Source: a virus (lineage: Duplodnaviria; Heunggongvirae; Uroviricota; Caudoviricetes). Taken from it: 45,485 bases of DNA. Below, in pieces: positions 1 to 44,260 of this stretch. A model generated the notes under the pieces. That model was not told the DNA's origin and did no database searches. It was given only the letters and a program-made list of their open reading frames with translations. The stretch covers positions 1-45,485 of the IMG/VR virus record IMGVR_UViG_2869970738_000006; one strand, written 5' to 3'. Each line of letters begins with the position of its first letter. Within the stretch, counting starts at the first letter, position 1. The translations under genes and the position numbers were made by a program.

Positions 1-662
<662 letters not shown>

Positions 663-663
663 C

Positions 664-2412
664 TTTTGCGCTGATTGCCGCCTGCTTCGCGCTCTGCTGC
701 TGTTCAAACCGCGCCGCCTGCTGTGCCAGCTCATTCAGCCGCTTCTGGTGTTCAATCTTGTCTCCCAGCTCAGCCAGCTGGCGTTTGTACTCCAGCGTCT
801 CTTTCTCATGAGCCAGCAGGGATTTTTCCTGCTCAGATAACTGCCGTTTCGTGGCGGCCTCTTTCAGGACCACATACTGATTTTCCGCTTCCCATAAATC
901 CCGGCGCTGCTGGCTGATTTTCTCATTCACACCGCTGTGTTTTTCCAGCGTCCTGAGCTCGGTTTCAAGCGCCAGCATGGCTGCATGCGCCCGGTCTTCC
1001 TGGCGCTCACCGGCAGACACCTTCACACCGGACGGCTTTTTCAGCGTCTATTCATAATCCTTTTTTGCCGACGCCATCAGCGTGTTGCAATCCGCCTGCA
1101 GGATTTTTCCGTCTTTCAGGGCCTTATTCAGCTCTTTCTGACGGGCGGTATATTTATCCAGCGGCGTCTGCAGGCGCTCATACGCCTTCTGCGCCTCTCC
1201 GGTATACTTCAGCTGTGACGCCTCACGCTCAGCCCGGTCCCTTGCCGCCAGTTCACCGGCTTTTTCCATATCCGACTGCAGCGTGGCCGCTGCCAGACCC
1301 AGACGGGCATTTTCCCGGTCATCCCATGCCCCCTGAAGGTTCGCACGAAAAGAGGAGGTCTTTCCCCGGCGCTGGCTCCGGCTCTGGTACCACTGCCATT
1401 TTTTATCCGCCTCATCAAATGCCTTCTGCGCACTGGCGAGCATATCCGCTGAGGATTCAGGACGACCGATATCCAGAATGGCATCCCACATCGATTTGAA
1501 TGCCTTCCCTGTTTTATCCGCCCAGGTCTCCAGTGTTCCCATGTTTTCTTTCAGGCGACGGGTCTGCTCATCAAAGCCTTTCGTGGCGATATCGTTCGCC
1601 GCCTGCAATGCCCCGGCCTCGTCTCCGGAACGCTGCAGCTGTGCAACATACGCAATCTGCTCTGCCGTCACGTTACGGAACTGGCGCGCCATCGCCATCA
1701 GTCCCGACGTCGGGTCAGTGGTCAGCTTCCCGAAGGCTTCAGCGACTTTATCCACCTCCACACCGGATGCAGACGCAAAACGCGCGACACTCTGGTTGAT
1801 GGCATCAAACTGTTCACCACCACGCACACCGGCATTCACCAGGGCTGCCAGTGACTCTTTCGCCTGGTTAAACGTCAGCCCTGCTGCCTGCCCGGCTCTT
1901 GAGAGAGTCAGCATACGATCGGCAGTCAGTCCTGACTGATTACCGGAAAGAACCAGGGTTTTATTAAACGCTGAAAGCGTGGAATCTCCCTGGTACCAGG
2001 CGTACACCAGCGCACCTGTCGCCACCGCCAGCGAGGTGACCCCGACCATCGGCAGGGTGATCGCACCGGCAAGCCCCCTGAACATGGGGATCATCCCGCC
2101 GAAGGAGTCCTTCACCTGACCGCCCTGTTGCAGCAGGATCAGCCAGGGATTCTGACCACCTGCAAGCTGCGTGGCGATATCCGTAAACTGTGCGGGCAGG
2201 GTTCGCATGGCCGCTTTATACTGCCCGACGGAAATCCCGGCTTTTTGTGCAGCCAGCGCCTGGCGGCTCAGGCCCTGTTCAACAGCACTGGCGGTTTTTC
2301 TGGCGTCGGTATCCAGACCTGAAAAATGACGCCTTACCCGGCTCATCTGCTCATCGAAACGGACAGCATCCAGACTCAGGTCAATAACAAGATCACCAAC
2401 CGGCTGGGACAT
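664..2412 (-). pseudogene. Tail tape measure protein (lambda H-like), copy A: in-frame TAG at 1048-1050 and 3' end cut by the IS3-family element
   Basis: 454-aa N-terminal ORF aligns with lambda H; reading frame continues past the TAG (..KKDYE*TLKKP..) with conserved sequence until the IS junction. Confidence 0.8.
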
Positions 2413-2806
2413 ATCTCACACCTCCCGGAATCCCCGCTGAAGCCATCATTAATGCGGCATCATCCACCATGACATCCGCCACATCCGCAGACGATAAAAT
2501 ATCGCGCCCTCCGTCCCCACCGAACCGGACGCCTCCGGCAAGTCCTGCCGCTTTCTGCATCAGCATTTTGTCCTCATCCGGCCTCTCCACCTGCTCTTCC
2601 TCATGCCGGGGGACAAGCAGACTGAAATCAGAGGGATGCATATCCGGATCGCAAAAAAACAGGCTGAGTACAGCGTACGTCAGCCCGGAAAAATGCATAT
2701 CCAGCTGGGTATCCTGAAAATAATGCGTGCGGTAAAAACGGTGCCAGTCGGCATATTCGGTGGATGTCATCCCGGCAAGCATGGCGCGCCAGTCGAGTCT
2801 CCCCAT
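2393..2806 (-). CDS. Tail assembly chaperone T-frame segment, expressed as G-T fusion by -1 frameshift (copy A)
   Basis: T-like ORF in -1 frame relative to G; open from the slippery site at 2851-2857. Confidence 0.75.
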   Translation of the reverse strand: MGRLDWRAMLAGMTSTEYADWHRFYRTHYFQDTQLDMHFSGLTYAVLSLFFCDPDMHPSDFSLLVPRHEEEQVERPDEDKMLMQKAAGLAGGVRFGGDGGRDILSSADVADVMVDDAALMMASAGIPGGVRYVPAGW

Positions 2807-2832
2807 CTCACGCGCCAGTCTGAGGGCAAAGT

Positions 2833-3264
2833 TCAGCTCGCCGTCGAAGACTTTCCCGCAGAAAAATCATCATCAGTCAGCGTGTTATTTTTCGCCACTT
2901 CAGTAATATCAGTATCCGGACGAACAGCTTCGATCATCCCGGACAGGCACAACACCACGTCTTCCGCCCGGGCAATGGCATCGGCAGGCCAGGTGGTGAG
3001 CACTTCCTGCTCTATCTTCATCACGGCCTCATTCATTGACGGTGACTGCGTTTTCTGTGGATGGTTATGCCACAGGGACATCGCCACCAGAAACGCGCCG
3101 GTTCTGACGAGATCTTCCACGCTTACCTGCAGGTTGCCGCAGGATTCTGCCTGTTCTGCACGCCGTTTCAGGAGGGCAAGATGCTCGATACGCTGCAGCG
3201 CAGACAATTCGGAAAGCGTGACAGACACACCGTTATATTCAAATTGTTCTGTTTTCAGAAACAT
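2833..3264 (-). CDS. Tail assembly chaperone G (copy A)
   Basis: 143-aa ORF starting MFLKTEQFEYNGV, lambda G-like, ending ..SAGKSSTAS just after the slippery heptamer. Confidence 0.85.
   Translation of the reverse strand: MFLKTEQFEYNGVSVTLSELSALQRIEHLALLKRRAEQAESCGNLQVSVEDLVRTGAFLVAMSLWHNHPQKTQSPSMNEAVMKIEQEVLTTWPADAIARAEDVVLCLSGMIEAVRPDTDITEVAKNNTLTDDDFSAGKSSTAS
2851..2857 (-). other. Programmed -1 ribosomal frameshift heptamer G GGA AAG (G to GT)
   Basis: Minus-strand GGGAAAG in X XXY YYZ register within the last codons of G; T frame open downstream. Confidence 0.7.
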
Positions 3265-3277
3265 GTATTACCTCCGT

Positions 3278-4030
3278 TTACCCTGCAGCGCCCGCTTCAG
3301 TAACGGTGACTTCAGCCACTGCGGCGAACTGACCATTTCCGCTCACCACAGGGATCTGCACCTTACCTGTCGCCACGCCGTTTACCGTAATTGTCATATC
3401 TTTCACACTAATGGTGGCTTTCGACGGATCGGCGGAAACCGCTCTGAACGTCTTGTCGGTTGCACTTTCCGGCTCAAAAGAAACCGTCAGGGTGGTTGTT
3501 TTCCCTTTTGCCACCGTACCGGATGTCGGCGTCATCTTAATCGCACTGACCGGCGTAATTTTGCTGCGTTCTTCCGCTACAGAAGGTTTACCCACGTTAG
3601 TGACTTTCACCGTGCGGGTGATCACTTCTTTCGCCGTCACGGCCTTACCGATACTGCTGACCCAGCCACGAAACACATCCACCGTGCCATTCGGAAAACG
3701 GATTTTATAGGCCCGGACATCGCCGCTTTCAAACCAGCCTATAAGCCCTTTCTGGCCTTCCTCTCCCGGTTTCCAGGCCAGCGTAAAACTGGTATCACCT
3801 GCAGATTTCTGCCCCTGCCCGGTCGCGGTCCAGTCCGCGTCTTCATCATCCAGGTAGTTATCATCGTAGGATTCTGCCGTCATCTCGCCCGGCGTCAGAT
3901 CCTTCACCTTAGCCAGTCGCTGCCAGTCATCGTCTGACAACGGGTTTGCATAAGCATCACCCTTGCCGTTGTAAACCCACAGAGTGGTACCGGCACCTTT
4001 TACCGGCTCAAGGGGATTTGGTGTTGCCAT
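3278..4030 (-). CDS. Major tail protein V with C-terminal Ig-like domain (copy A)
   Basis: 250-aa ORF, lambda V-like; gene order between G and U. Confidence 0.9.
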
Positions 4031-4037
4031 ATCGTCC

Positions 4038-4433
4038 TCACATCTCGTATGTAATGGAATAAGTCAGATCTGCAGAACTCCATAACGCCATATCGTCATC
4101 ACGACGATACTCATAGCCCTGCGTAACCATCGTGGTAATCAGTCCTGCCAGTGCCGGGATCGCGGTCATCGCCGGGTAAATCCGGCTTTCCATCCACTGA
4201 TCAAGCTCTGAATCCGGTACCTGTGCCGGTAAAAACACCTCAATATGCAGCGTGGCCCGCCAGGTATCTGCATCCAGCTCTTCACCGGTATACTCTGCAT
4301 CCGTCAGATAAACCGCGATCGCAGGAAAATCCTCTTCGTCAAAAACAACGGGGCGACCATCAAACAGCGTCGCCCCGTGTTCATGCTGCTCGAGCGCATC
4401 CAGCACTGCGGCACGAATGTCAGTGTGTTTCAT
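4038..4433 (-). CDS. Tail terminator protein U (copy A)
   Basis: 131-aa ORF, lambda U-like, position between Z and V. Confidence 0.9.
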
Positions 4434-4963
4434 CGTTTTATTGCAATCCTCAGTTGTTGTTTCAGCGCGTATGCCAGTTCTTTAGGCAGGCGTTCACGCC
4501 GGATACGGTCAACATTCTCATCAAATGCCTGTTTCAGTGGGGCCGCCATCGGGATTTTCACCACATCAATGGGGTAACGGTTTTTCCCGGCCACACGCTG
4601 CATGACATGCCAGCGACCATTTTTTAATCGCTGAATAAATGCCCGCTGATACCGATGCTGACCGGCTTTAAGTATGCTGTTCGGGCGACGCCCCAGCATC
4701 CTGATCCCCAGCTTAATCACAGGGAGATCACCGCGGTTAACGATAATTTTGGCATTCGGATTTCTGACCGTCGCCCGTTTCAGTCTGGACCGTTCCTTAA
4801 CCAGTTTCCGGCGAACCTTTGTCTCCCGGGCAACCTGTGATGAAGACTGATTAATCGCCGTTGTGGCCACGCGGTTAATGGCCATTGCTGAAGCCGCCGG
4901 AATGGCGTTTTTACGAACCCGGCTCAGATTGTCAATCGCCTGATCAAGCCCTTTTATCGCCAT
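4430..4963 (-). CDS. Tail completion protein Z (copy A)
   Basis: 177-aa ORF, lambda Z-like; overlaps U start. Confidence 0.85.
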   Translation of the reverse strand: MAIKGLDQAIDNLSRVRKNAIPAASAMAINRVATTAINQSSSQVARETKVRRKLVKERSRLKRATVRNPNAKIIVNRGDLPVIKLGIRMLGRRPNSILKAGQHRYQRAFIQRLKNGRWHVMQRVAGKNRYPIDVVKIPMAAPLKQAFDENVDRIRRERLPKELAYALKQQLRIAIKR

Positions 4964-4978
4964 AATTTCACCCTGCGT

Positions 4979-5332
4979 TTATCGTCGCCGGTTAACTGCG
5001 GGTGGTTGACCACGGTTGAGCCAGAGATAACAGCTGCCCCCGTCATCCGGAGAAACACGATCCACCCAGAATATCTCACCATTAATGGTCAGCGTGTCAC
5101 CACGCCGCACGGCACGAACCGTATCCGTCCGCACAAATAATGACGGGCTGCTTCCTTCAATACGGACCCCGCCACCGGTAAACCCCAGCGACTCCGGATC
5201 ATCAAAAACCCCCTGAACTTCGCTGCCACACTGTGCCCCCGAGGTGAACTGCGCACAGAGCCCCATCACTTCAACGATCGTACTGTCTACCCCGGCGAGG
5301 GCAGCATCAAAGGCATTCTGAAAATCACGCAT
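4979..5332 (-). CDS. Head-tail joining protein FII (copy A)
   Basis: 117-aa ORF, lambda FII-like, conserved position. Confidence 0.85.
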   Translation of the reverse strand: MRDFQNAFDAALAGVDSTIVEVMGLCAQFTSGAQCGSEVQGVFDDPESLGFTGGGVRIEGSSPSLFVRTDTVRAVRRGDTLTINGEIFWVDRVSPDDGGSCYLWLNRGQPPAVNRRR

Positions 5333-5708
5333 ATTCAGCCGTTCCGTGCTGTATCATGGCCGTTGCCAGTGATGATGGCACCAGAACACACATACCCCGT
5401 AACGCCAGCTCAACGGGACGACCTGTCTCCGGGCAATACCCCATTACTTGCAGGCACTTCCGTACCCGGACGGCTTTAACATCATCCGGAGCATCCGTGT
5501 TGTTCAACTGCTCACCATCGTCTGTGTGATTTTGATCAGCCCCGCTCTCATCAGAGTGCATAATGCCCTCCGGGGAAACAGCAAGCTCCTCTTCCCACTC
5601 AGACACACGTTGAGCAATATCCGCAGCACTCCCCGACATATCCGCCTCGCGCCCCGGCAGGCCAGCCAGTTGACGAAGACGATTCAGATTTTCTTCTTTT
5701 GTTGCCAT
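5325..5708 (-). CDS. DNA packaging protein FI (copy A)
   Basis: Start taken at MATKEENL preceded by AGGAGG; acidic protein between E and FII. Confidence 0.75.
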   Translation of the reverse strand: MATKEENLNRLRQLAGLPGREADMSGSAADIAQRVSEWEEELAVSPEGIMHSDESGADQNHTDDGEQLNNTDAPDDVKAVRVRKCLQVMGYCPETGRPVELALRGMCVLVPSSLATAMIQHGTAEYA

Positions 5709-5759
5709 CTCAGCCTCCTGTGAAAAAAGACACGGGGGCATTTCGCCCCCGCTCACGGA

Positions 5760-6788
5760 TTATTTCACCTGTACCACCACAAACTCATCCGGATCCGGCA
5801 GCACCATCAGCGGAGCGGACTGCGTCATGGTGAATTCACAGGACGGATCGCCCACGGTCAGCCAGTGTTTCGGGTAACGGGAAGAAGCCACCACTCCTTC
5901 AGACAACGCCTGTGCATCCTTAATGGCACCATAGCAACGAATCCCCTCTGCCGCCGTATTCCCCAGCACCAGCATGCCCTCCGGCAGATAACGTTTTTCG
6001 GTACCGTCCTCTGCCACATAAGACGTTTTCGCCACCACAATGGCCAGATCGCCGTAATACCCCTTGAAGGACACCACTGCGCCCAGATCTTTCACTGCCG
6101 TTTCGAGTTGTGAATTTGAGCCGCGACGGGTATCCAGTTTTTCGCGGAACAGCTTAAAGCCATTCAGCAGACGCCAGACCGTACCGTCCATAATGGCGAT
6201 ATTCACAAGGCCGCTGGCCTGATCGCAGTAGAGGTCAATATCATGCGTCGGATCAAACGTATCACGGTCCTGCTCAGACCATTTTTTACCGTCAGCCTGC
6301 TCAATGTTATTTCCTTCAGAGCGCCCGAAATCCACCTCGACAGTATCAAACTGATCCCCTTCCATGGTGTATTTGCCATACAGCACGGCATTCACCGCCT
6401 GCATTTCTTCCACCTGGACAATGGCGTGCTCTTCCTGTTTGAGGTTATCGGTAATGATACGCAGACGACGGTAGGCCGGGTCGTTCAGCTGAGCCGGATC
6501 TTCACCAGGAAGGCGCTCAACCGCCTGCTGGTAATTAAATTCGTGTTTCGGCTTGACGTAGCCCGGACGTAACACGCGGGTTTCACCACCGCGATGGCGA
6601 AGCACTTTTCCTTCAACGATCGGGGAGACATAGGCCGCCACCGGCGTTTTTCCGGTAATTTTGTCCAGCATCACCTCTTCGGTGTGGAAATTCACCGTAC
6701 GGCGGAAAAACAGCTCCAGAAACAGCGCACGGAATTTCACTTTTTGTTCGGTATAACCGAGTAACTGGCGGGTCGTAAACAATCCCAT
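5760..6788 (-). CDS. Major capsid protein E (copy A)
   Basis: 342-aa ORF, lambda E-like. Confidence 0.95.
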   Translation of the reverse strand: MGLFTTRQLLGYTEQKVKFRALFLELFFRRTVNFHTEEVMLDKITGKTPVAAYVSPIVEGKVLRHRGGETRVLRPGYVKPKHEFNYQQAVERLPGEDPAQLNDPAYRRLRIITDNLKQEEHAIVQVEEMQAVNAVLYGKYTMEGDQFDTVEVDFGRSEGNNIEQADGKKWSEQDRDTFDPTHDIDLYCDQASGLVNIAIMDGTVWRLLNGFKLFREKLDTRRGSNSQLETAVKDLGAVVSFKGYYGDLAIVVAKTSYVAEDGTEKRYLPEGMLVLGNTAAEGIRCYGAIKDAQALSEGVVASSRYPKHWLTVGDPSCEFTMTQSAPLMVLPDPDEFVVVQVK

Positions 6789-6845
6789 AAATCAGTTCCT
6801 TTCATTCAGAAATCAGTCAGGCCACCATGGTGGCCTGATAACGTG

Positions 6846-7193
6846 TTACGGCAGAGCCGCGTGACTCAGGGCTGTGCCGGCAAAGGCATTTGCCTTTTTG
6901 TGTTCATCCACACTGTCAGGCCAGCGGATTGCCTCCGTCGCAAAGGTCCCCGACTTGTAATAGGTCAGCACCGTCTCTGTGCCTTCAAGCGGCAGTACCA
7001 GTATGCCAACCGCACTACCGGCTTTCTGTCCATCCCAGACCACCAGTTTCCCGGTGGCTTCATCCAGCATCAGGGGCGTCAGAGCCGGTGTTGCAGAAGA
7101 AATCCCGCTGCTGCCTGTGGCGGTATGAGCCGGATCATTACCAGCAAAAATACGTACTTCCGCACGCTGTTCAGTGATGGTTTTCGTCACCAT
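6846..7193 (-). CDS. Head decoration protein D (copy A)
   Basis: 115-aa ORF, lambda D-like, between C and E. Confidence 0.9.
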   Translation of the reverse strand: MVTKTITEQRAEVRIFAGNDPAHTATGSSGISSATPALTPLMLDEATGKLVVWDGQKAGSAVGILVLPLEGTETVLTYYKSGTFATEAIRWPDSVDEHKKANAFAGTALSHAALP

Positions 7194-7229
7194 ATTGTTA
7201 AAACCTCGTATTGATGTTCAGCACTGACT

Positions 7230-8735
7230 TCATGGCATGGCCATGAGCATTTTCACGTCCGCATCACCGTCTTCTGATGCCTGTGACACGCCCCCCTGGA
7301 CCGCAGCCGGTGAATGGTTCGCCATGAAATGTTCAAACAGGGCGGTTGTGGATGCAGAGACCGGTTCTGCCTTACCTGATCCCGCAGCCAGCACAGCCCG
7401 GGCGCTCTCCACAGTCATTCCCGGGCAGGCAGCCAGCTGTTCAGCCTGCGCCTCAGCCCCTTTTGCCTCATCCAGTGCCATGATCTGATCACGGAGTGAT
7501 GGTCCGGCATTCGCCTGCGGTGAAGCAGCCAGGATCGGGCGGGCTTTTTCCACCGTCATCTCCGGCATCGCCGCCAGCGTTGCTGCCAGTTGTTCACGAC
7601 CGTTCGCTTCTTCACACGCCATAATGCGATCGGCTTCACTCTGCGCGGATGCCACCGGCTGCTGCGGTGCCGCCGCGGCCAGAATCGCCCGGGCCTGTTC
7701 AACGCTCATGCCCTGTTGCCCTGCCAGCATCGTGGCAAGCTGTTCACGTCCTTTCGCTTCCTGGCATGTCAGGATCCCCATCACTCGCTGGTTCTCCTGC
7801 ACGGCGGCTTCCGTTGCAGTTAATTGCGGCATAGTGCCTCCTCTGACATTACTGTTCAGCGCCGTGGCCATCACACTGATGGCATCCGACGCATTGATTA
7901 ATTCATCCGCCAGCCCGGCCTCAATGCCGGACTGACCTTCAAAAACGGCGGCCTCTGTTCCCGTGACCGCATCCACAGACAACCCGGTATACATCGCCAC
8001 TTTTTCGGCAAACATCCGGTGCGCCGCATCAATCCGCTGCTGCATATCCTGGCGAACCTCTGCCGGCAACGCTTCAAACTGATTGCCATCCACCTTGTGC
8101 GCCCCGGCATAAATCAGCGTGATATCCACACCGGCCTGCGCCAGATGACCGGCATAGCTGACATGGCTCATCATCACGCCAATGGAGCCGATACGGGATG
8201 TCTGGGTAACCAGCCGTCGGGAGCAGGCCGACGCCAGCAGCATGGCTGCAGAACAGGCCGTGTCATTGCACAGTGCCCAGACCGGCTTCTGCTGACGGAG
8301 GCGGTAAATCATGTCAGCGCAGTCAAACGCGCCGGCGGCCTGCCCGCCCGGACTGTCAATGTCCAGCAGTATGCCCCGCACCTGGCTATCTGCCATTGCC
8401 TGCTGAAGACAGGCGACAATGCCGTCATAGCCAGTCATTCCGGAAAATGGCCGCATCCCCCCCAGCCGGTGCACCAGCGTGCCGGTCACCGGCAGTACCG
8501 CAATACCGTTCACCACCCGGTAAACACGGGCCGGTCGTTTACCTCCGGCCATGTACTCGTCCGTTTCAGCCAGCATTCCGGGAGCATCAAGCTGTACCTG
8601 CTGTTGTGGTACCGAAAGACTTGCTGCGCCCATCTCGCGCCCGAGCGCGCAAAAGAAAACCCGCGCATAGGCGGGCTCCAGAAGCAGCGGTTCATTGAAT
8701 GCTGCGGCAATAATGTGTGAAAGATTACGTCTCAC
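7230..8735 (-). CDS. Head maturation protease/scaffold (lambda C/Nu3-like, ClpP/S49-type), copy A
   Basis: 501-aa ORF with serine-protease core and C-terminal threefold ~40-aa repeat. Confidence 0.9.
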   Translation of the reverse strand: MRRNLSHIIAAAFNEPLLLEPAYARVFFCALGREMGAASLSVPQQQVQLDAPGMLAETDEYMAGGKRPARVYRVVNGIAVLPVTGTLVHRLGGMRPFSGMTGYDGIVACLQQAMADSQVRGILLDIDSPGGQAAGAFDCADMIYRLRQQKPVWALCNDTACSAAMLLASACSRRLVTQTSRIGSIGVMMSHVSYAGHLAQAGVDITLIYAGAHKVDGNQFEALPAEVRQDMQQRIDAAHRMFAEKVAMYTGLSVDAVTGTEAAVFEGQSGIEAGLADELINASDAISVMATALNSNVRGGTMPQLTATEAAVQENQRVMGILTCQEAKGREQLATMLAGQQGMSVEQARAILAAAAPQQPVASAQSEADRIMACEEANGREQLAATLAAMPEMTVEKARPILAASPQANAGPSLRDQIMALDEAKGAEAQAEQLAACPGMTVESARAVLAAGSGKAEPVSASTTALFEHFMANHSPAAVQGGVSQASEDGDADVKMLMAMP

Positions 8736-10316: not shown

Positions 10317-10519
10317 AACCTCACTCCCAGCGGACGACGGCGACGTCGGGTTGTCCCCAGTACCGACTCCGCATCATTGATCGCCCGGTTAAGCTCATCC
10401 AGAGAAGCCGCCGTATATTCAATTCTGCGACCATCTTTCTGGACAGACACCACCCGTTTACCGGTTAATAAATCAAGGCGTGCCTGACGCAGCGCCTGTA
10501 GTTCAGCGACTGTAACCAT
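10313..10519 (-). CDS. Head-tail connector protein W
   Basis: 68-aa ORF with lambda W-like motif TGKRVVSVQKDGRRIEY. Confidence 0.85.
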   Translation of the reverse strand: MVTVAELQALRQARLDLLTGKRVVSVQKDGRRIEYTAASLDELNRAINDAESVLGTTRRRRRPLGVRL

Positions 10520-33763: not shown

Positions 33764-36371
33764 CGCCCGCTCCCCGATAACAGACCGCCATCACGCAACT
33801 GCAGCCGGAGCTCATCCTGCGCACCTTTACGGGCCATCTCATACACCGCTTTCATCAGCTGCGGCCCTGCCTGCCCGTTGGGGCCGTCGTTCTGAATCAC
33901 CACGTGATTGTTCTGATTAAAATTAATGCCTTCGGCCCGCCGCATCTGCGCCGGACTTCCGGCACCGCCGACATAACCACCTTCCGCATACCCGCGCATC
34001 AGACGATACAGGTTGCCGACACCAATCCGGCTGGTCGCCTCCTTCGTGAAGACAAACTCCCCGCGATGGACAATCCCCGCAGGCTCATATTTGCCGCCCG
34101 TCCCCGTAAATCCTCCGGTCGCGAAATGGAAGTTCGCCGCCGCAGCCTGAATGGCCGTCCCCGTGGAAGCGGATGCGCCACCACCGAAAGCACCACCAAT
34201 GGCGCTGCCGATACGCCCGACAATCCCCACCATCGCCTGCTTCAGAAAAATCTCTGTCAGCATGGAGAGCACGGAACGGGTGAAACCACGCCAGTTCTGT
34301 TCGCTGCCGGTCAGCATCGCCGCCATATTCTGTGCAATACCGTCAAAGGTCTGCGTGGCCACACTTTTTACCTGCGAAAAACTGTCCGTCGCACTTTCCG
34401 CCCACTCGCCCCAGCCGGACTTCATCCCGGCCATCCAGCTTCCACGAAGCTGCTCCTCCGCAGACCAGGTGTTCTTCAGTGCAGATGTGGCCTTCGCCAG
34501 CGCAGCCGGATTATCACCGTACACCTCACGAAGGCGCTGCTCTTCCGACTCCCGCTGCGCCTGACGGTCGGTGAGTCCGCGGGCTTTTGCGCTGATTGCC
34601 GCCTGCTTCGCGCTCTGCTGCTGTTCAAACCGCGCCGCCTGCTGTGCCAGCTCATTCAGCCGCTTCTGGTGTTCAATCTTGTCTCCCAGCTCAGCCAGCT
34701 GGCGTTTGTACTCCAGCGTCTCTTTCTCATGAGCCAGCAGGGATTTTTCCTGCCAGGATAACTGCCGTTTCGTGGCAGCCTCTTTCAGGACCGCATACTG
34801 ACTTTCCGCCTTCCATAAATCACGGCGCTGCCGGCTGATTTTCTCATTCGCACCGCTGTGTTTTTCCAGCGTCCTGAGCTCAGCTTCAAGGGCAAGCAGA
34901 GCCTCTCTTGCCTGCTCCTCTTCCCTCTCCCCGGCAGAGCGCGTTTTCGGTGATGTATGCTTTTTACCTGTCAGCTCTTCAGCCAGACGGCTGACGGCTT
35001 CCTGCTGCCCAAGACCTTTGCTGACGCCTGTTGCACGCGAGCGGTTGATGTACCCCATTTCCCCCTGGCGTATACGCGCATCCCGTTCCGCAATGGATTT
35101 TCTCAGCGCCAGTTCATCGCGTTTTGTTTTCTCAATAAATACGCGGTTCTCTTCTGCCAGTTCACCAAACAACGCACCAACGCCGGGCACATTCTTTGTC
35201 GTTTCCCAGGCTGACTGAATAAATTCAGCCAGCGCCAGATCCCCCTGCACAAGCAGCAGCTTCACCTGTTCAACGGTTCCGGCCACCACGTCAGTGATCA
35301 GACTGAGTGCCCCCAGTGTATGATCACCTATCCATGCCCATGCGTCAGAAGTCCAGGTTTTAACATCGTCCCAGATTTTTTCCACCGGCGTGGCCGCTTT
35401 ATCAAGTTGCTCCAGACGTGCATTCATGACATCCGCAAACAGGGACATCGCCTCCGTCACCGCAGCCTGTTTACCTTTCGTGCGCTCAAGCTCATCAATA
35501 TGGCGTAACTGGGAAACGCTCAGGAAGTTATACTGCTGATTCAGGGAGGCCAGCGCCTTCACCGGATCTGCTGCAATCCCTTCAAAGGCTTTTTCCACCT
35601 TCCCGGCATCGTCCCCCACCGTCTGCAGCCATCTCTGAGAGGTTTCCCCCATGATCCGTAGCTGCCCGGCGGTATATTTCCCGCTTTCTGCCAGACGGGC
35701 CAGATTTTCTGCCGCCTGTCTGATACCACCACCGGCTTCATCGCTGATCACCCCGGCCATTTTCCACAATTCTGCCGTTGTGGTGGCAGCCGCCCCTCCG
35801 GTCAGGATCAGTGAACGCAATAAGGCCCGGTCAGCCTGCTCTGCCTGCCAGGCGGCGACAGCAAGCGCGGCCAGTACGGCAACCCCGCCACCTGCCGCCA
35901 CACGGACCACCGACATAAATCGTCCCAGCTCACCGGCATTCCGGGCATTTTCAGCCAGTGCATTTGCCGTATCTGACAGCGACTCCTCTGATGATTCAGA
36001 GGCATCCCTGATCCCGAGAAGTTCCTCCTTCAGCAGGGTAAGCAGGCTGAGCGGTTCACCGAATGAATCGCTGATCTGCCCCCCTGCTGCAGCATGATAA
36101 GGAAGGGATTCTGACCACCGGCAAGCTGAGTGACAATATCCGTGAACTGTGCGGGCAGTGTGCGCATGGCAGCCTTATACTGTCCGACTGATATCCCGGC
36201 TTTTTGTGCAGCCAGCGCCTGTCGGCTCAGCCCCTGTTCAACAGTACTGGCGGTTTTTCTGGCATCCGCCTCCAGACTGGAAAAATGACGGCGTACCCGG
36301 GCCATCTGTTCATCAAACCGGGCCGCATCCAGACTCAAATCAATAACCAGATCACCCGCTGGCTGGGACAT
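33760..36371 (-). pseudogene. Tail tape measure protein (H-like), copy B: apparent 1-nt deletion in a C6 run at 36079-36084
   Basis: N-terminal ~95 aa in ORF 36030-36371; rest in 718-aa ORF; the adjacent frame reads ..LQQGGQISDSFGE.. continuously into the long ORF. Confidence 0.8.
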
Positions 36372-36765
36372 ATCTCACACCTCCGGAAATCCCCGCTGAA
36401 GCCATCATTAATGCAACATCATCCTCGCTGACATCCACCACATTCGCAGAAGGTGAAATATCGCGCCCTCCGTCCCCTCCGAACCGGACGCCTCCGGCAA
36501 CTCCTGTCGCTTTCTGCATCAGCATTTCTTCCTCGTCCGGCATCTCCGTCTGCTCTTCCTCACACGCTGGAGCAAGCAGACTGAAATCCGCCGGATGCAT
36601 ATCCGGATCGCCAAAAAACAGGCTGAGTACGGCGTACATCAGCCCGGAAAAATGAGCGTCCAGTTGGGTATCCTGAAAATAATGCGTGCAGTAAAAACGT
36701 CGCCAGTCGGCATATTCGGTGGATGTCATCCCGGCAAGCATGGCGCGCCAGTCGGGTCTCCCCAT
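36352..36765 (-). CDS. Tail assembly chaperone T-frame segment (copy B)
   Basis: 137-aa ORF homologous to copy A T; T frame closed by a stop at 36790-36792 upstream. Confidence 0.7.
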   Translation of the reverse strand: MGRPDWRAMLAGMTSTEYADWRRFYCTHYFQDTQLDAHFSGLMYAVLSLFFGDPDMHPADFSLLAPACEEEQTEMPDEEEMLMQKATGVAGGVRFGGDGGRDISPSANVVDVSEDDVALMMASAGISGGVRYVPASG

Positions 36766-37183
36766 CTCTCGCGCCAGTTTCAGGACAAGTTACCGGCTCA
36801 GTCGCTTCTGCTTTCCCGGTTTGTTCAGGATCGGCATCGTGCCGGTTATCCAGCATACCTGAAAGATAAAGCACCCGGTTCGTTGCCTGATTCAGTGCAT
36901 CAGCAGGCCATCCCAGCATCACTTCACGGCGGATCTGCTGCATCTCTGTCTCCGGAGAGGCCAGAGTGCCTTTGAGGGAATGGGTATGCCATAGCGACAT
37001 CGCCACAAGCAGGGATGCCGTTTCCAGATATCGCTGGTTAATGTGCACGACATCATGCTTCGTTGTCTCCTGTTGTTCTGCGTCTGAAACAAACTTTATA
37101 TAATCAAACCGCTGCAGCGCAGACAATTCGGAAAGCGTGACAGACACACCGTTATATTCAAATTGTTCTGTTTTCAGAAACAT
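36560..37183 (-). CDS. Tail assembly chaperone G (copy B) with aberrant 3' end: reads through ~75 extra codons, no in-register slippery site
   Basis: First ~130 aa G-like; middle and 3' part diverge from copy A; GGGAAAG at 36811-36817 is in GGG AAA register. Confidence 0.6.
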   Translation of the reverse strand: MFLKTEQFEYNGVSVTLSELSALQRFDYIKFVSDAEQQETTKHDVVHINQRYLETASLLVAMSLWHTHSLKGTLASPETEMQQIRREVMLGWPADALNQATNRVLYLSGMLDNRHDADPEQTGKAEATEPVTCPETGARDGETRLARHACRDDIHRICRLATFLLHALFSGYPTGRSFFRADVRRTQPVFWRSGYASGGFQSACSSV

Positions 37184-37196
37184 GTATTACCTCCGT

Positions 37197-37949
37197 TTAC
37201 CCTGCAGCGCCCGCTTCAGTAACGGTGACTTCAGCCACTGCGGCGAACTGACCATTTCCGCTCACCACAAGGATCTGCACCTTACCTGTCGCCACGCCGT
37301 TTACCGTAATTGTCATATCTTTCACACTAATGGTGGCTTTCGACGGATCGGCGGAAACCGCTCTGAACGTCTTGTCGGTTGCACTTTCCGGCTCAAAAGA
37401 AACCGTCAGGGTGGTTGTTTTCCCTTTTGCCACCGTACCGGATGTCGGCGTCACCTTAATCGCACTGACCGGCGTAATTTTGCTGCGTTCTTCCGCTACA
37501 GAAGGTTTACCCACGTTAGTGACTTTCACCGTGCGGGTGATCACTTCTTTCGCCGTCACGGCCTTACCGATACTGCTGACCCAGCCACGAAACACATCCA
37601 CCGTGCCATTCGGAAAACGGATTTTATAGGCCCGGACATCGCCGCTTTCAAACCAGCCTATAAGCCCTTTCTGGCCTTCCTCTCCCGGTTTCCAGGCCAG
37701 CGTAAAACTGGTATCACCTGCAGATTTCTGCCCCTGCCCGGTCGCGTTCCAGTCCGCGTCTTCATCATCCAGGTAGTTATCATCGTAGGATTCTGCCGTC
37801 ATCTCGCCCGGCGTCAGATCCTTCACCTTAGCCAGTCGCTGCCAGTCATCGTCTGACAACGGGTTTGCATAAGCATCACCCTTGCCGTTGTAAACCCACA
37901 GAGTGGTACCGGCACCTTTTACCGGCTCAAGGGGATTTGGTGTTGCCAT
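37197..37949 (-). CDS. Major tail protein V (copy B)
   Basis: Near-identical to copy A V. Confidence 0.9.
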
Positions 37950-37956
37950 ATCGTCC

Positions 37957-38352
37957 TCACATCTCGTATGTAATGGAATAAGTCAGATCTGCAGAACTCC
38001 ATAACGCCATATCGTCATCACGACGATACTCATAGCCCTGCGTAACCATCGTGGTAATCAGTCCTGCCAGTGCCGGGATCGCAGTCATCGCCGGGTAAAT
38101 CCGGCTTTCCATCCACTGATCAAGCTCTGAATCCGGTACCTGTGCCGGTAAAAACACCTCAATATGCAGCGTGGCCCGCCAGGTATCTGCATCCAGCTCT
38201 TCACCGGTATACTCTGCATCCGTCAGATAAACCGCGATCGCAGGAAAATCCTCTTCGTCAAAAACAACGGGGCGACCATCAAACAGCGTCGCCCCGTGTT
38301 CATGCTGCTCGAGTGCATCCAGCACTGCGGCACGAATGTCAGTGTGTTTCAT
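37957..38352 (-). CDS. Tail terminator protein U (copy B)
   Basis: Identical protein to copy A U. Confidence 0.9.
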
Positions 38353-38924
38353 CGTTTTATCGCAATCCTCAGTTGTTGTTTCAGCGCGTATGCCAGTTCT
38401 TTAGGCAGGCGTTCACGCCGGATACGGTCAACATTCTCATCAAATGCCTGTTTCAGTGGGGCCGCCATCGGGATTTTCACCACCTGAATGGGAAGGCGAT
38501 TACGCTTTTTCCTTCCCTTGTCGTCATTGCCCTCCTCATATCTGGCCTGGGGAAGACGTTGCATAACATGCCAGCGCCCATTATTTAATCGCTGGATAAA
38601 TGCCCGCTGATAACGATGCTGACCGGCTTTAAGTATGCTGTTCGGACGACGTCCCAGCATTCTGATCCCCAACTTAATCACAGGGAGATCACCGCGGTTA
38701 ACGATAATTCTGGCATTCGGATTTCTGACCGTCGCCCGTTTCAGTCTGGACCGTTCCTTTACCAGTTTCCGTCTCACCCTGGTTTCCCGGGCAACCTGTG
38801 ACGAAGACTGATTAATCGCCGTTGTGGCCACGCGGTTAATCGTCATTGCTGAAGCCGCCGGAATGGCGTTTTTACGAACCCGGCTCAGATTATCAATCGC
38901 CTGATCAAGCCCTTTTATCGCCAT
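38349..38924 (-). CDS. Tail completion protein Z (copy B), 14-aa insertion relative to copy A
   Basis: 191 aa versus 177 aa; extra segment LPQARYEEGNDDKGRKKRNR. Confidence 0.85.
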   Translation of the reverse strand: MAIKGLDQAIDNLSRVRKNAIPAASAMTINRVATTAINQSSSQVARETRVRRKLVKERSRLKRATVRNPNARIIVNRGDLPVIKLGIRMLGRRPNSILKAGQHRYQRAFIQRLNNGRWHVMQRLPQARYEEGNDDKGRKKRNRLPIQVVKIPMAAPLKQAFDENVDRIRRERLPKELAYALKQQLRIAIKR

Positions 38925-38939
38925 AATTTCACCCTGCGT

Positions 38940-39293
38940 TTATCGTCGCCGGTTAACAGCGGGTGGTTGCCCACGGTTGAGCCAGAGATAACAGCTTCCC
39001 CCGTCATCCGGAGAAATACGATCCACCCAGAACATCTCGCCGTTAATGGTCAGCGTGTCACCACGCCGCACGGCACGCACCGTATCCGTCCGCACAAATA
39101 ATGACGGGCTGCTTCCTTCAATACGGACCCCGCCACCGGCAAAACCCAGCGACTCCGGATCGTCAAAAACCCCCTGAACTTCGCTTCCACGCTGTGCTCC
39201 CGAGGTGAACTGCGCACAGAGCCCCATCACTTCAACAATCGTGCTGTCCACCCCGGCAAGGGCAGCATCAAAGGCATTCTGAAAATCACGCAT
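38940..39293 (-). CDS. Head-tail joining protein FII (copy B)
   Basis: Near-identical to copy A. Confidence 0.85.
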   Translation of the reverse strand: MRDFQNAFDAALAGVDSTIVEVMGLCAQFTSGAQRGSEVQGVFDDPESLGFAGGGVRIEGSSPSLFVRTDTVRAVRRGDTLTINGEMFWVDRISPDDGGSCYLWLNRGQPPAVNRRR

Positions 39294-39669
39294 GCTCAGC
39301 CGTTCCGTGCTGTATCATGGCTGTCGCCAGTGGTGATGGCACCATAACACGCATGCCCCGGTACGTCAGTTCAACGGGACGGCCTGTCTCCGGGCAATAC
39401 CCCATCACATGCAGGCATTTCCGCACACGGACCGCTTTAACATCATCCGTAGCATCCGTGTTGTTCAACTGCTCACCATCGTCTGTGTGATTTTGATCAG
39501 CCCCGCTCTCATCAGAGTGCATAATGCCCTCCGGGGAAACAGCAAGCTCCTCTTCCCACTCAGACACACGTTGAGCAATATCCGCAGCACTCCCCGACAT
39601 ATCCGCCTCGCGCCCCGGCAGGCCAGCCAGTTGACGAAGACGATTCAGATTTTCTTCTTTTGTTGCCAT
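39286..39669 (-). CDS. DNA packaging protein FI (copy B)
   Basis: Near-identical to copy A; start at MATKEENL. Confidence 0.75.
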   Translation of the reverse strand: MATKEENLNRLRQLAGLPGREADMSGSAADIAQRVSEWEEELAVSPEGIMHSDESGADQNHTDDGEQLNNTDATDDVKAVRVRKCLHVMGYCPETGRPVELTYRGMRVMVPSPLATAMIQHGTAEHA

Positions 39670-39720
39670 CTCAGCCTCCTGTGAAAAAAGACACGGGGGC
39701 ATTTCGCCCCCGCTCACGGA

Positions 39721-40749
39721 TTATTTCACCTGTACCACCACAAACTCATCCGGATCCGGCAGCACCATCAGCGGTGCGGACTGCGTCATGGTGAATTCAC
39801 GGGCCGGATCGCCCACAGTCAGCCAGTGTTTCGGATAACGGGAAGAGGCCACCACACCTTCGGACAACGCCTGCGCATCCTGAATGGCACCATAGCAACG
39901 AATGCCCTCTGCTGCCGTATTCCCCAGGACCAGTGTGCCCTCCGGCAGATAACGTTTTTCGGTACCGTCCTCTGCCACATAAGACGTTTTCGCCACCACA
40001 ATGGCCAGATCGCCGTAATACCCCTTGAAGGACACCACCGCCCCCAGGTCTTTCACTGCCGTTTCGAGTTGTGAATTTGAGCCGCGACGGGTATCCAGTT
40101 TTTCGCGGAACAGCTTAAAGCCATTCAGCAGACGCCAGACCGTACCGTCCATAATGGCGATATTCACAAGGCCGCTGGCCTGATCGCAGTAGAGGTCAAT
40201 ATCATGCGTCGGATCAAACGTATCACGGTCCTGCTCAGACCATTTTTTACCGTCAGCCTGCTCAATGTTATTTCCTTCAGAGCGCCCGAAATCCACCTCG
40301 ACAGTATCAAACTGATCCCCTTCCATGGTGTATTTGCCATACAGCACGGCATTCACCGCCTGCATTTCTTCCACCTGGACAATGGCGTGCTCTTCCTGTT
40401 TGAGGTTATCGGTAATGATACGCAGACGACGGTAGGCCGGGTCGTTCAGCTGAGCCGGATCTTCACCAGGAAGGCGCTCAACCGCCTGCTGGTAATTAAA
40501 TTCGTGTTTGGGCTTGACGTAGCCCGGACGTAACACGCGGGTTTCACCACCGCGATGGCGAAGCACTTTTCCTTCAACGATCGGGGAGACATAGGCCGCC
40601 ACCGGCGTTTTTCCGGTAATTTTGTCCAGCATCACCTCTTCGGTGTGGAAATTCACCGTACGGCGGAAAAACAGCTCCAGAAACAGCGCACGGAATTTCA
40701 CTTTTTGTTCGGTATAACCGAGTAACTGGCGGGTCGTAAACAATCCCAT
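39721..40749 (-). CDS. Major capsid protein E (copy B)
   Basis: 342 aa, a few substitutions versus copy A. Confidence 0.95.
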   Translation of the reverse strand: MGLFTTRQLLGYTEQKVKFRALFLELFFRRTVNFHTEEVMLDKITGKTPVAAYVSPIVEGKVLRHRGGETRVLRPGYVKPKHEFNYQQAVERLPGEDPAQLNDPAYRRLRIITDNLKQEEHAIVQVEEMQAVNAVLYGKYTMEGDQFDTVEVDFGRSEGNNIEQADGKKWSEQDRDTFDPTHDIDLYCDQASGLVNIAIMDGTVWRLLNGFKLFREKLDTRRGSNSQLETAVKDLGAVVSFKGYYGDLAIVVAKTSYVAEDGTEKRYLPEGTLVLGNTAAEGIRCYGAIQDAQALSEGVVASSRYPKHWLTVGDPAREFTMTQSAPLMVLPDPDEFVVVQVK

Positions 40750-40806
40750 AAATCAGTTCCTTTCATTAAGAAATCAGTCAGGCCAACGCGGTGGCCTGAT
40801 AACGTG

Positions 40807-41154
40807 TTACGGCAGCGCCGCGTGACTCAGGGCTGTGCCGGCAAAGGCATTTGCCTTTTTGTGTTCATCCCCACTGTCAGGCCAGCGGATTGCCTCCGTC
40901 GCAAAGGTCCCCGACTTGTAATAGGTCAGCACCGTCTCTGTGCCTTCAAGCGGCAGTACCAGTATGCCAACCGCACTACCGGCTTTCTGTCCATCCCAGA
41001 CCACCAGTTTCCCGGTGGCTTCATCCAGCATCAGGGGCGTCAGAGCCGGTGTTGCCGAGGAAATCCCGCTGCTGCCTGTGGCGGTGTGAGCCGGATCATT
41101 ACCGGCAAAAATACGTACTTCCGCACGCTGTTCAGTGATGGTTTTCGTCACCAT
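40807..41154 (-). CDS. Head decoration protein D (copy B)
   Basis: 115 aa, near-identical to copy A. Confidence 0.9.
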   Translation of the reverse strand: MVTKTITEQRAEVRIFAGNDPAHTATGSSGISSATPALTPLMLDEATGKLVVWDGQKAGSAVGILVLPLEGTETVLTYYKSGTFATEAIRWPDSGDEHKKANAFAGTALSHAALP

Positions 41155-41190
41155 TTTGTTAAAACCTCATATTGATGGTCAGCACTGACT

Positions 41191-42696
41191 TCATGGCATG
41201 GCCATGAGCATTTTCACGTCCGCATCACCGTCTGCTGACGTCTGTGACACGCCACCCCGCACCGCTGCCGGTGAATGATTCGCCATGAAATGTTCAAACA
41301 GGGCGGTTGTGGATGCAGAGACCGGTTCGGCCTTACCTGATCCCGCAGCCAGCACAGCCCGGGCGTTCTCCACGGTCATTCCCGGGCAGGCCGCCAGTTT
41401 TTCAGCCTGCGCTTCTGCCCCTTTTGCCTCATCCAGGGCCATGATCTGATCACGAAGTGAGGGCCCGGCATCCGCCAGTGGTGCAGCCGCCAGGATCGGG
41501 CGGGCTTTTTCCACCGTCATCTCCGGCATCGCCGCCAGCGTTGCCGCCAGTTGTTCACGACCGTTCGCTTCTTCACACGCCATAATGCGATCGGCTTCAC
41601 TCTGCGCGGATGCCACCGGCTGCTGCGGTGCCGCCGCGGCCAGAATCGCCCGGGCCTGTTCAACGCTCATGCCCTGTTGCCCTGCCAGCATCGTGGCAAG
41701 CTGTTCACGTCCTTTCGCTTCCTGGCATGTCAGGATCCCCATCACTCGCTGGTTCTCCTGCACGGCGGCTTCCGTTGCAGTTAATTGCGGCATAGTGCCT
41801 CCTCTGACATTACTGTTCAGCGCCGTGGCCATCACACTGATGGCATCCGACGCATTGATTAATTCATCCGCCAGCCCGGCCTCAATGCCGGACTGACCTT
41901 CAAAAACAGCGGCCTCTGTTCCCGTGACTGCATCAACAGACAGACCGGTAAACATCGCCACTTTTTCGGCAAACATCCGGCGCGCCGCATCAATCCGCTG
42001 CTGCATGTCCTGGCGAACCTCTGCCGGCAACGCTTCAAACTGATTGCCATCCACCTTGTGCGCCCCTGAGTAAATCAGCGTGATATCCACACCGGCCTGC
42101 GCCAGATGACCGGCATAGCTGACATGGCTCATCATCACGCCAATGGAACCGATACGGGATGTCTGGGTAACCAGCCGTCGGGAGCAGGCCGACGCCAGCA
42201 GCATGGCCGCAGAACAGGCCGTGTCATTACACAGTGCCCAGACCGGCTTCTGCTGCCGGAGGCGGTAAATCATGTCAGCGCAGTCAAACACGCCGGCTGC
42301 CTGCCCGCCCGGACTGTCAATGTCCAGCAGTATGCCCCGCACCTGGCTATCTGCCATTGCCTGCTGAAGACAGGTGACAATGCCGTCATAGCCAGTCATT
42401 CCGGAAAATGGCCGCATCCCCCCCAGCCGGTGCACCAGCGTGCCGGTCACCGGCAGTACCGCAATACCGTTCACCACCCGGTAAACACGGGCCGGTCGTT
42501 TACCTCCGGCCATGTACTCGTCCGTTTCAGCCAGCATCCCGGGAGCATCAAGCTGTACCTGCTGTTGCGGTACCGAAAGACTTGCTGCCCCCATCTCGCG
42601 CCCCAGCGCGCAAAAGAAAACCCGCGCATAGGCGGGCTCCAGAAGCAGCGGTTCATTGAATGCTGCTGCAATAATGTGTGAAAGATTACGTCTCAC
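41191..42696 (-). CDS. Head maturation protease/scaffold C/Nu3-like (copy B)
   Basis: 501 aa, near-identical to copy A. Confidence 0.9.
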   Translation of the reverse strand: MRRNLSHIIAAAFNEPLLLEPAYARVFFCALGREMGAASLSVPQQQVQLDAPGMLAETDEYMAGGKRPARVYRVVNGIAVLPVTGTLVHRLGGMRPFSGMTGYDGIVTCLQQAMADSQVRGILLDIDSPGGQAAGVFDCADMIYRLRQQKPVWALCNDTACSAAMLLASACSRRLVTQTSRIGSIGVMMSHVSYAGHLAQAGVDITLIYSGAHKVDGNQFEALPAEVRQDMQQRIDAARRMFAEKVAMFTGLSVDAVTGTEAAVFEGQSGIEAGLADELINASDAISVMATALNSNVRGGTMPQLTATEAAVQENQRVMGILTCQEAKGREQLATMLAGQQGMSVEQARAILAAAAPQQPVASAQSEADRIMACEEANGREQLAATLAAMPEMTVEKARPILAAAPLADAGPSLRDQIMALDEAKGAEAQAEKLAACPGMTVENARAVLAAGSGKAEPVSASTTALFEHFMANHSPAAVRGGVSQTSADGDADVKMLMAMP

Positions 42697-43465
42697 GTGG
42701 TGTTGTCTCCTCTTCCGGCCTGCGACTCTCCGCTATCTGCTGCTGATACGCCTGCGCTATCCACACCGGACGTGAGAGTCCGGCTTTTTCCCGCTCTGCA
42801 GATTCCCTGACCTGTTGGCAGAAAATGTCCTGATAATCCTCGCCCATCAGCGCCAGCTCTTTCTCATACGTGCTCAGTCCGGCCTCAATGCGCATCACTG
42901 ATTCCTGAACCTCCTTGAGCCCGTCAATGGCCATTCTTCCGGCTCCAATCCACTCAGCCCGTGACCAGGCTGATCGCGCCTGATAAAAATCAAACCGTGC
43001 CCGTGGCGGACGAATAATCCCCGAAGAAGTGCCTCTTCCAGCCAGCAGGAAAACATCTGCGTGGCCAGCCGGGACGCAATAAATTTTCGCCGCCCCATAA
43101 AATAGCGCCACGACTCATTGGCGGATGCGCGGGCACTTGAGTAACTGACCTTCGAGTAATCACGGGACAACTGTTCGTAGGAAACGCCAAGACCGGCGGC
43201 GATATACCGCAGCAGCGCCTGTTCAAGCGCCGAAAATCCATTGTCTGAATCCTGCGCGGTCTGAAGTTTCAGATCATCACCGGGGAAAAGGTGCGGAATT
43301 TTGACACCGCCCAGCATCACGCTATTCGTGTCATACCAGGTGGAGAACTTATCCAGAATATTAATAAGCGGATTATCCTTCTGCCCCTGCGGCGCACCGG
43401 CGATATATTCAAAGGCCTTTTCGGTATCAAGGTCACTTTCAATCGTCGCTGCATACATCGCCTTT
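42686..43465 (-). pseudogene. Portal protein B (copy B): 5' ~270 codons missing (homology to copy A ends about 43465) and same C4-run frameshift at 43019-43022
   Basis: ORFs 42895-43458 and 42686-43111 match the copy A portal C-terminal half; upstream sequence unrelated. Confidence 0.8.
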
Positions 43466-43593
43466 ATGAAAAGACAGGAAAAAATAAAATTTAAAAACAG
43501 TACATTACGAATGCTCAGACCTATCGTTTAAAGGAGTCGCAATACACACTGCAATACACGATTATTTATAAGATGAGCGGCATCCGTCATAAA

Positions 43594-43819
43594 GCTGGTG
43601 GATGCTTTTTCTATGCATATATGCACAGTTTTAGTGGGCGTTAATGTCGATATAGGGATCCCCATATCGAGATTGGATACCAGGCTTTTTTAATCAGGCT
43701 GGTGGGCTTTACCTGTTTTGTATGAGTGGTCATCATGACCATGTCATAACAAAAACCCCATATTCGTGGTTTTTCTGTGTCGGGCTATTCTGTCGTTGCT
43801 GTGCTGATTTGGCTGGTGG
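43594..43819 (+). other. Three co-oriented Chi sites (GCTGGTGG) within ~230 bp
   Basis: Exact octamers at 43594-43601, 43698-43705 and 43812-43819; the latter two inside a repeated ggctggtgggct 12-mer. Confidence 0.6.
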
Positions 43820-43888
43820 GCTGAATCATCATTACGGCGATGCAGCTATGTAGACGTTCCGGCCTCCTCAAATTGAGGATTGTGGAAG

Positions 43889-44060: not shown

Positions 44061-44260
44061 GTCCTCAGATGTGAGGGATGTAGCCAGCTTTTCCCCCAGT
44101 GGGGGATATCCAGCACCGACGGCTTAACTGTGCGTGCCAGCACAAGGTAGCCTTGAACTACTTACTGCATCCCATCTTACAGGCCGTGCCTTCCTGCTTA
44201 ACTTTTTGCAATGCAACAAGTCAGCCAGCGCAATTTTGCGTTATCGGGAATATCAGCAAG

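Follow-up and report, generated by a model that had tools for sequence, protein, structure and literature searches.

Multiple, rearranging lambdoid prophages with near-identical late-gene modules have been described in Escherichia coli O157:H7 (Iguchi et al. 2006, as reported in PMC6379469), and the phenomenon is well known from that review as an ordinary feature of E. coli and Shigella genomes. Here, a stretch of 45,485 nucleotides (the window; IMG/VR record IMGVR_UViG_2869970738_000006) was analysed, which comes from a Shigella boydii-type chromosome rich in insertion sequences (IS) (NCBI CP026795.1, 4.58 Mb) and holds two copies of a lambda-like morphogenesis module, one on either side of a chromosomal ruvC-yecE block. 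The two prophage remnants that carry these copies, A and B, very probably represent the late-gene parts of two distinct lambda-like prophages that were acquired independently, are both now defective and have a common module. Like the lambdoid prophages of O157:H7 and of other E. coli and Shigella, they occur together in one chromosome, have mosaic similarity of head and tail genes on the kilobase scale, are decayed by IS and deletion, and have the potential to recombine. Nothing essential sets the present pair apart; what is particular to it is the direct orientation of the copies, 33.9 kb apart around aspS, in an arrangement that is apparently specific to this assembly.

Two described prophages and one class of satellite are the nearest comparisons for the parts of the locus. 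The yecE prophage of E. coli O111:H21 strain 15A (NZ_CP077477.1) has the same left junction and gene order as remnant B, at 93-98% identity, but remnant B lacks the region past mid-portal in the window and contains a satellite remnant, IS elements and different G and H alleles. The prophages of the enterotoxigenic E. coli (ETEC) strain ETEC-2265 (NZ_CP023346.1) and related ETEC match copy A at 99.0% over the 6.3-kb block, including its 177-amino-acid Z allele, whereas the ETEC-2265 prophage is complete and lies at ompW and remnant A adjoins potB-potA-pepT. The satellites in question are the helper-embedded phage-inducible chromosomal islands (HE-PICIs), a known class that includes portal-gene sites such as B:Phage_portal_2:241 (Tommasini, Mageeney and Williams 2023, PMC10111431).

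Results

Two copies of a lambda-like morphogenesis module

Self-BLAST of the window aligned 3191-9503 with 37110-43464 as a direct repeat of 96.84% identity (6,355 aligned columns, 159 mismatches and 3 gaps), a 6.3-kb match that is far beyond chance. An in-frame deletion of 42 bp in Z of copy A (177 against 191 amino acids) shifts the offset between the copies from 33,919 to 33,961. For V, U, FII, FI, E, D and C, protein identity between the copies is 94-100% (identical residues over length: V 247/250, U 131/131, FII 113/117, FI 135/143, E 338/342, D 114/115, C 488/501). Beyond the repeat, T and the N-terminus of H align at 86.9% (2099-2829 against 36059-36788) and a segment within H at 95.2% (663-977 against 34584-34898). 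No alignment between the copies was obtained over the middle of G or the middle of H in the self-comparison, and no closer alleles of these middles of B were present among the fetched loci. A preliminary description of this DNA had placed two almost identical V-to-portal segments at 3278-9480 and 37197-43465, with differences in G/T, the tape measure and Z; the self-comparison confirms the two-copy module at those positions, and the differences are as it described them. The parts of the window that carry the repeat are as follows.

664-12534, minus strand: prophage remnant A, H'-T-G-V-U-Z-FII-FI-E-D-C-B (portal)-W-A (large terminase) and the last 133 bp of Nu1; from colinearity with the O111:H21 yecE prophage, Pfam and gene calls.
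3191-9503, minus strand: repeat copy A, comprising the end of G, V-U-Z-FII-FI-E-D-C and the C-terminal two fifths of the portal gene; from self-BLAST.
16679-22860, no single strand: chromosomal block with the 3' end of yebB (yebB'), ruvC, yebC, nudB, aspS, yecD (split by an IS110-family element) and a 5' stub of yecE; from alignment with O111:H21 and NCBIfam.
23629-43464, minus strand: prophage remnant B, at the yecE site, with a DinI-like gene, tail-fibre genes, lom and J-I-K-L-M-H-T-G-V-U-Z-FII-FI-E-D-C-portal' (C-terminal part only); from Pfam and gene calls.
37110-43464, minus strand: repeat copy B; from self-BLAST.

Pfam families occur in lambda order, namely GpA_ATPase/nuclease, gpW, Phage_portal_2, Peptidase_S49, HDPD, Phage_cap_E, Packaging_FI, Phage_attach, Minor_tail_Z, Phage_tail_U, Phage_TTP_12, Phage_TAC_2, Phage_tail_T and TMP_2, and copy B additionally has Phage_min_tail, Phage_tail_L, NLPC_P60, Lambda_tail_I and GpJ domains. 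The gene order Nu1-A-W-B-C-D-E-FI-FII-Z-U-V-G-T-H(-M-L-K-I-J), with matching families, is that of a lambda-like morphogenesis module.

Each copy has closer relatives elsewhere

The differences between A and B are strongly patchy, ranging from 0-1 up to 50 per 200 bp: nearly identical segments of 200-1,300 bp (0-1 differences per 200 bp) are interspersed with segments that have 10-50, and 18 unbroken runs of identity reach 100 bp or more, up to a maximum of 461 bp. Among complete E. coli genomes, full-length matches to copy A at 99.0% lie in prophages of ETEC strains and full-length matches to copy B at 98.4% lie in prophages of other E. coli; copy B and the O111:H21 yecE prophage are 98.1% identical. 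Each copy is therefore nearer to prophages of other strains than to its partner (96.8%), which argues against segmental duplication. When the two copies were aligned together with two E. coli prophages, B agreed with O111 and A with 2013C-4991 at 85 informative sites, A with O111 and B with 2013C-4991 at 39, and A with B against both outgroups at 22, and this allegiance switches block by block. The module itself is widespread: counted as carried where at least 80% of the query was covered, it is present in approximately 1,550 of 5,426 complete E. coli genomes, at up to 10 places per genome.

From these comparisons A and B appear as two draws from the lambdoid phage pool of E. coli and Shigella, neither copied from the other, and the V-to-portal block in both remnants would be a common module that recombines freely among these phages. 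The blocks in which A and B agree do not point to exchange between them in this genome, because phages elsewhere match them equally well. Gene conversion within the genome, acting to homogenise the copies, was considered as well and is unsupported, as the near-identical blocks match other strains equally and the single-nucleotide polymorphisms (SNPs) near a shared portal frameshift differ. The preliminary description had offered either a duplication or two related prophages exchanging modules, and had proposed comparing SNP density between the copies. With that comparison made, the differences fall in mosaic blocks; two related prophages with mosaic differences are upheld, duplication is not, and no evidence was seen of exchange between A and B in this genome.

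State of the two remnants

Neither remnant is an intact inducible prophage. Remnant A is colinear with the O111:H21 yecE prophage (97.1% over 11.9 kb), but its H has a nonsense codon at 1048-1050 and is cut by an IS at 663, Nu1 is cut, and gene calls found no tail-tip, lysis or early genes in it. The H nonsense codon is common to CP026762.1, CP026866.1 and several short-read assemblies; remnant A with the IS-cut H' and the flank on its pot side is also present in both of those genomes, and an 11.9-kb Illumina contig spans it from terminase to H'. In remnant B the portal gene is interrupted by PICI and IS sequence, and lom is split by a 10-bp deletion at 27257 that is shared with CP026872.1. 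Remnant B with the PICI and the IS3 end occurs in at least nine assemblies, the S. boydii CDC 3083-94 genome among them. The lom deletion and the H nonsense codon of A are genuine inactivating lesions, unlike the homopolymer losses considered below.

The G/T genes also differ in their frames. In copy A, GGGAAAG (2851-2857) is correctly phased as the slippery heptamer G GGA AAG and T lies in the -1 frame, the canonical arrangement, while in copy B GGGAAAG (36811-36817) is out of phase, the G open reading frame (ORF; 36560-37183) is 207 amino acids long and T is in the +1 frame. As the CDC 3083-94 reference genome has the copy B allele too, this allele is likely to be a genuine lesion or else an unusual variant.

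Homopolymer losses in portal, terminase and tape-measure genes

A GGGGG run has lost one G in both portal genes, at the corresponding position. The one-base losses located in the window are as follows.

9053-9062, minus strand: portal G5-to-G4 one-base loss in copy A (near 9057); run intact in CP026762.1 and Illumina contig SRR8186700.
11022-11030, minus strand: large-terminase C6-to-C5 one-base loss in copy A (near 11027); run intact in CP026762.1 and the Illumina contig.
43014-43023, minus strand: portal G5-to-G4 one-base loss in copy B (near 43018); run intact in CP001063.1 (CDC 3083-94) and five other assemblies.

Over 21 kb of the A region, CP026762.1 and this genome differ by 9 substitutions and 2 indels, and both indels are single-base losses in G/C runs here, which create the portal and terminase frameshifts; in the Illumina-derived contig both genes of copy A are intact. 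Throughout the assembly series CP0267xx-CP0268xx, nearly all 1-bp indels relative to CDC 3083-94 are G/C-run deletions, and they are sporadic: the sister assemblies L024 and L025 have 25 common SNPs relative to the CDC 3083-94 reference, yet are discordant at the portal run. The series is one which we take to be PacBio-derived, and CDC 3083-94 was presumably Sanger-sequenced. Sporadic deletions in G/C runs are a familiar signature of long-read homopolymer consensus error. The G4 allele of the portal gene is the best match in 4 of 1,563 E. coli records. H of remnant B is split at a G7 run (~35,920-36,030), a loss absent from most relatives and present in the assembly L028.

A satellite remnant in the portal gene of B

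The right end of the repeat lies at 43464 because an HE-PICI integrated in the portal gene of B. Beyond 43464, the sequence is shared with many E. coli at 98.4-98.7% identity, junction included, and the PICI homology ends at query position 1184, where an IS3-family element begins (44624). E. coli EC28 has the complete 11-kb element within a prophage portal gene, and eight further examples were found. The EC28 element encodes an integrase, AlpA, Bro-N, a primase, a single-stranded DNA-binding protein, a capsid protein, a decoration protein and a small terminase; this PICI gene set is seen in the relatives (loci L004-L012), and the window retains a 93-amino-acid ORF and the 3' end of the small-terminase gene terS. 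The attachment core ATCGCCTT is the identity block at both EC28 junctions in the portal gene, and the window junction at 43457-43464 is identical to it. An HE-PICI site is thus complete in the EC28 relative and represented by one junction in the window, as set out here.

9496-9503, no strand: empty HE-PICI attachment core ATCGCCTT within the copy A portal gene; from comparison with the junction in copy B and both EC28 junctions.
43465-44623, minus strand: terminal 1.16 kb of the HE-PICI, with the 93-amino-acid ORF and the 3' end of the PICI small-terminase gene; from matches to many E. coli, junction included.
44624-45485, minus strand: IS3-family IS that cuts the PICI remnant; from NCBIfam, and PICI homology stops there.

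The exact 93-amino-acid ORF (44261-44542) is present in 6,301 blocks of a public collection, and the IS-cut arrangement at 44624 is also found in S. boydii CDC 3083-94 and others. In common with the published class (PMC10111431), this is an integrase/AlpA/Bro-N/primase/capsid/decoration/small-terminase satellite within a portal gene of lambda type, with matching orientation; it differs in that the window keeps only the last 1.16 kb, cut by an IS. The interruption lies at approximately position 238 of the Phage_portal_2 profile, near the published 241.

Junctions around the ruvC-yecE block

Remnant B lies at the known yecE site, with the left junction (yecD, the yecE stub and the DinI-like gene) as in O111:H21, and the housekeeping block is 98.5% identical to that genome, without gaps. 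Beyond the IS at the H' end of A there is a fragment of a tail-fibre-assembly gene, followed by potB, potA, pepT, ycfD, phoQ, phoP and purB; this flank is present here and in two relatives, and pot-pepT-phoPQ is presumably the integration locus of remnant A itself. The Nu1 side of A is joined to ruvC through an IS66::ISSso6 composite and an IS1 stub in yebB. The IS1/yebB junction (16562-16741; 4546-4726 of locus L032) is 100% identical to S. boydii Sb227, where yobI, ruvA and ruvB remain upstream, whereas here the yebB IS1 is reduced to 117 bp and is joined to the IS66-family element. The IS1 stub and the end of the IS66-family element would be the breakpoint of a large rearrangement that joined A to ruvC. 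In CP026762.1, A and B are on opposite strands 0.34 Mb apart, and in CP026866.1 on opposite strands 0.97 Mb apart; compared with these two genomes, only in this assembly are they co-oriented and 34 kb apart. The IS elements at these junctions are listed below.

1-663, plus strand: 3' part of an IS3-family IS that truncates the tape-measure gene of remnant A; from an NCBIfam IS3-family transposase match, with intact-prophage homology beginning at 663.
12535-16560, no single strand: IS composite of ISSso6 (IS110 family, ~12535-14057) and an IS66-family element (~14058-16560, genes on the minus strand); from NCBIfam.
16562-16678, plus strand: 117-bp right end of IS1 inserted in yebB; a direct repeat of 23512-23628.
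21015-22465: IS110-family element splitting yecD, an insertion common to S. boydii Sb227.
22861-23628, plus strand: complete IS1 of 768 bp with the 9-bp target duplication CGGTTGGGG, at the boundary of yecE' and prophage B; absent from Sb227.

The terminal repeat of the IS at 1-663 is one that we take to resemble IS911, and its junction with H' at 663 recurs in CP026762.1, CP026866.1 and an Illumina contig from Logan. Region 12535-16560 gave a 100% match to an annotated ISSso6 beside an IS66 tnpC, and 87% identity to ISEc23. ISSso6 adjoins the tnpC end of the IS66-family element, and many loci of related Shigella chromosomes and of E. coli FDAARGOS_943 carry this composite. The pattern suggests that ISSso6 targets the IS66 end site-specifically and that the composite supplies many 4-kb repeats. 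In CP026866.1 (locus L014, 157-5590) the Nu1 fragment adjoins the tnpA end of IS66::ISSso6 on the strand opposite to the rest of remnant A, with an IS3-family element between, which suggests that the composite was originally inserted into Nu1 and that further local inversions came later. An 85% match of 668-16560 to E. coli 2013C-4991 was considered as a conserved prophage-IS66 junction and rejected: it consists of two separate pieces, and the IS lies elsewhere in that prophage.

An exact-protein lookup assigned the window to CP026795.1. No complete E. coli RefSeq genome spans the whole region, and a tRNA scan of the window found no tRNA. The yecD::IS110 insertion and the yebB::IS1 junction are common to Sb227 (CP000036.1), and remnant B with an identical satellite and IS end is present in CDC 3083-94 (CP001063.1); both strains are named as S. 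boydii in PMC2974192. These shared insertions and junctions place the chromosome, as far as sequence can tell, in the S. boydii clade.

Discussion

Segmental duplication, in which one late region was copied within the chromosome and the copies then diverged, is extremely improbable. The blocks are colinear, in direct orientation and just 33.9 kb apart, and the 22 sites at which A and B agree against both outgroup prophages would fit such an event, but the copies are not each other's closest relatives, their divergence is mosaic rather than uniform, the adjoining G, T and H segments are different alleles, and A and B diverge by 3.2%, more than the 1.5% by which the housekeeping genes of this genome and of an E. 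coli strain differ. Neither copy is absent in relatives; related genomes carry both remnants, at separate loci (pot and yecE), distant and inverted. It is also unlikely that the arrangement is an artefact of assembly, either as a phantom second copy or as two real remnants wrongly joined near ruvC at repeated IS. Region 12535-16678 is entirely IS, recurring many times per genome, in the closest relative CP026762.1 (chromosome length differing by only 59 bp) A and B are inverted, with 340 kb between them, and consensus errors are present in this assembly series, all of which would fit a mis-join. However, a composite of approximately 4 kb is normally spanned by long reads, and IS-mediated rearrangements, IS-bounded inversions included, are very frequent in Shigella (PMC8072062), so that a real difference between close relatives is expected. 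The approximately 200 differing positions and the different flanks exclude collapse or a phantom copy, and both remnants are found separately in independent assemblies, which disposes of the concern over assembly collapse raised with the preliminary description. With two independently acquired prophages as the preferred origin, a single IS-bounded rearrangement would have placed A beside ruvC, so that a pair originally distant and inverted became direct repeats separated by 33.9 kb; in its simplest version this would be an inversion of ~0.8-1 Mb across the terminus region, a proposal that combines the locus contexts with the E. coli K-12 map. Several points weigh against this part of the account: the map positions are assumed from the K-12 map, the reciprocal inversion junction was not found (a lookup of the IS66 TnpC gave other genomes only), the A-to-ruvC junction at 12535-16678 is wholly repeated IS DNA, and no second assembly was found with it, so there may be a mis-join there in this assembly.

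The portal frameshift, which the preliminary description had reported as shared by the two copies, is in the sequence of both but is not supported as biology, given the intact runs in relatives and the differing local haplotypes. From the comparison of assemblies it is probably a long-read homopolymer consensus error, as, probably, is the terminase frameshift of copy A. The break in the tape-measure gene of B would be of the same kind, less certainly so because the same-lineage assembly L028 shares it. It is unlikely that the portal loss is real, arising by short-patch gene conversion between the remnants or by slippage twice, in a form of concerted decay. The one-base loss is exactly identical in both copies, the rarity of the allele makes two independent chance events unlikely, and unique regions of the window show zero 1-bp indels relative to relatives. 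Set against this, the closest relative and Illumina data both show a full-length run in copy A, the CDC 3083-94 reference genome and five further assemblies show one in copy B, and the loss appears sporadically in sister assemblies alongside many other G/C-run deletions. Moreover, SNPs 23 bp and 123 bp from the deletion separate A from B, so that there is no shared conversion tract of useful length and a tract of less than 146 bp would be needed. Even so, a recent identical slippage in both copies or a gene-conversion patch of that size may have occurred, and the G7 break common to B and L028 may be real, which count against reading these losses as errors. It is very unlikely that the portal deletion is real and was moved between the remnants by such a patch, a process that would spread inactivating mutations among resident prophage remnants, and that, in addition, the 33.9-kb ruvC-aspS-yecD block can be amplified. 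The portal, terminase and possibly tape-measure genes look like pseudogenes in this assembly, but this appearance is untrustworthy without short-read polishing.

The copies, with their long identical runs, are plausible substrates for RecA, and unequal exchange between the direct repeats would delete or duplicate the 33.9-kb unit. In E. coli, aspS is essential (Keio collection). As deletion would remove it, only tandem duplication or gene conversion would be recoverable, and no evidence of duplication, amplification or gene conversion between the repeats was seen in the sequence comparisons. The earlier proposal that the repeats can drive deletion or amplification of the intervening housekeeping genes is therefore sound in principle and realistic for duplication and amplification, but not for deletion.

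The finding has little import beyond annotation: A and B are another pair of lambdoid remnants with a common late-gene module in an IS-rich Shigella chromosome. HE-PICI satellites also occur, decayed, in Shigella prophage remnants. Furthermore, if the IS-bounded junction is true, this chromosome would carry 6.3-kb direct repeats around an essential gene, an arrangement in which duplication is permitted and deletion is not.

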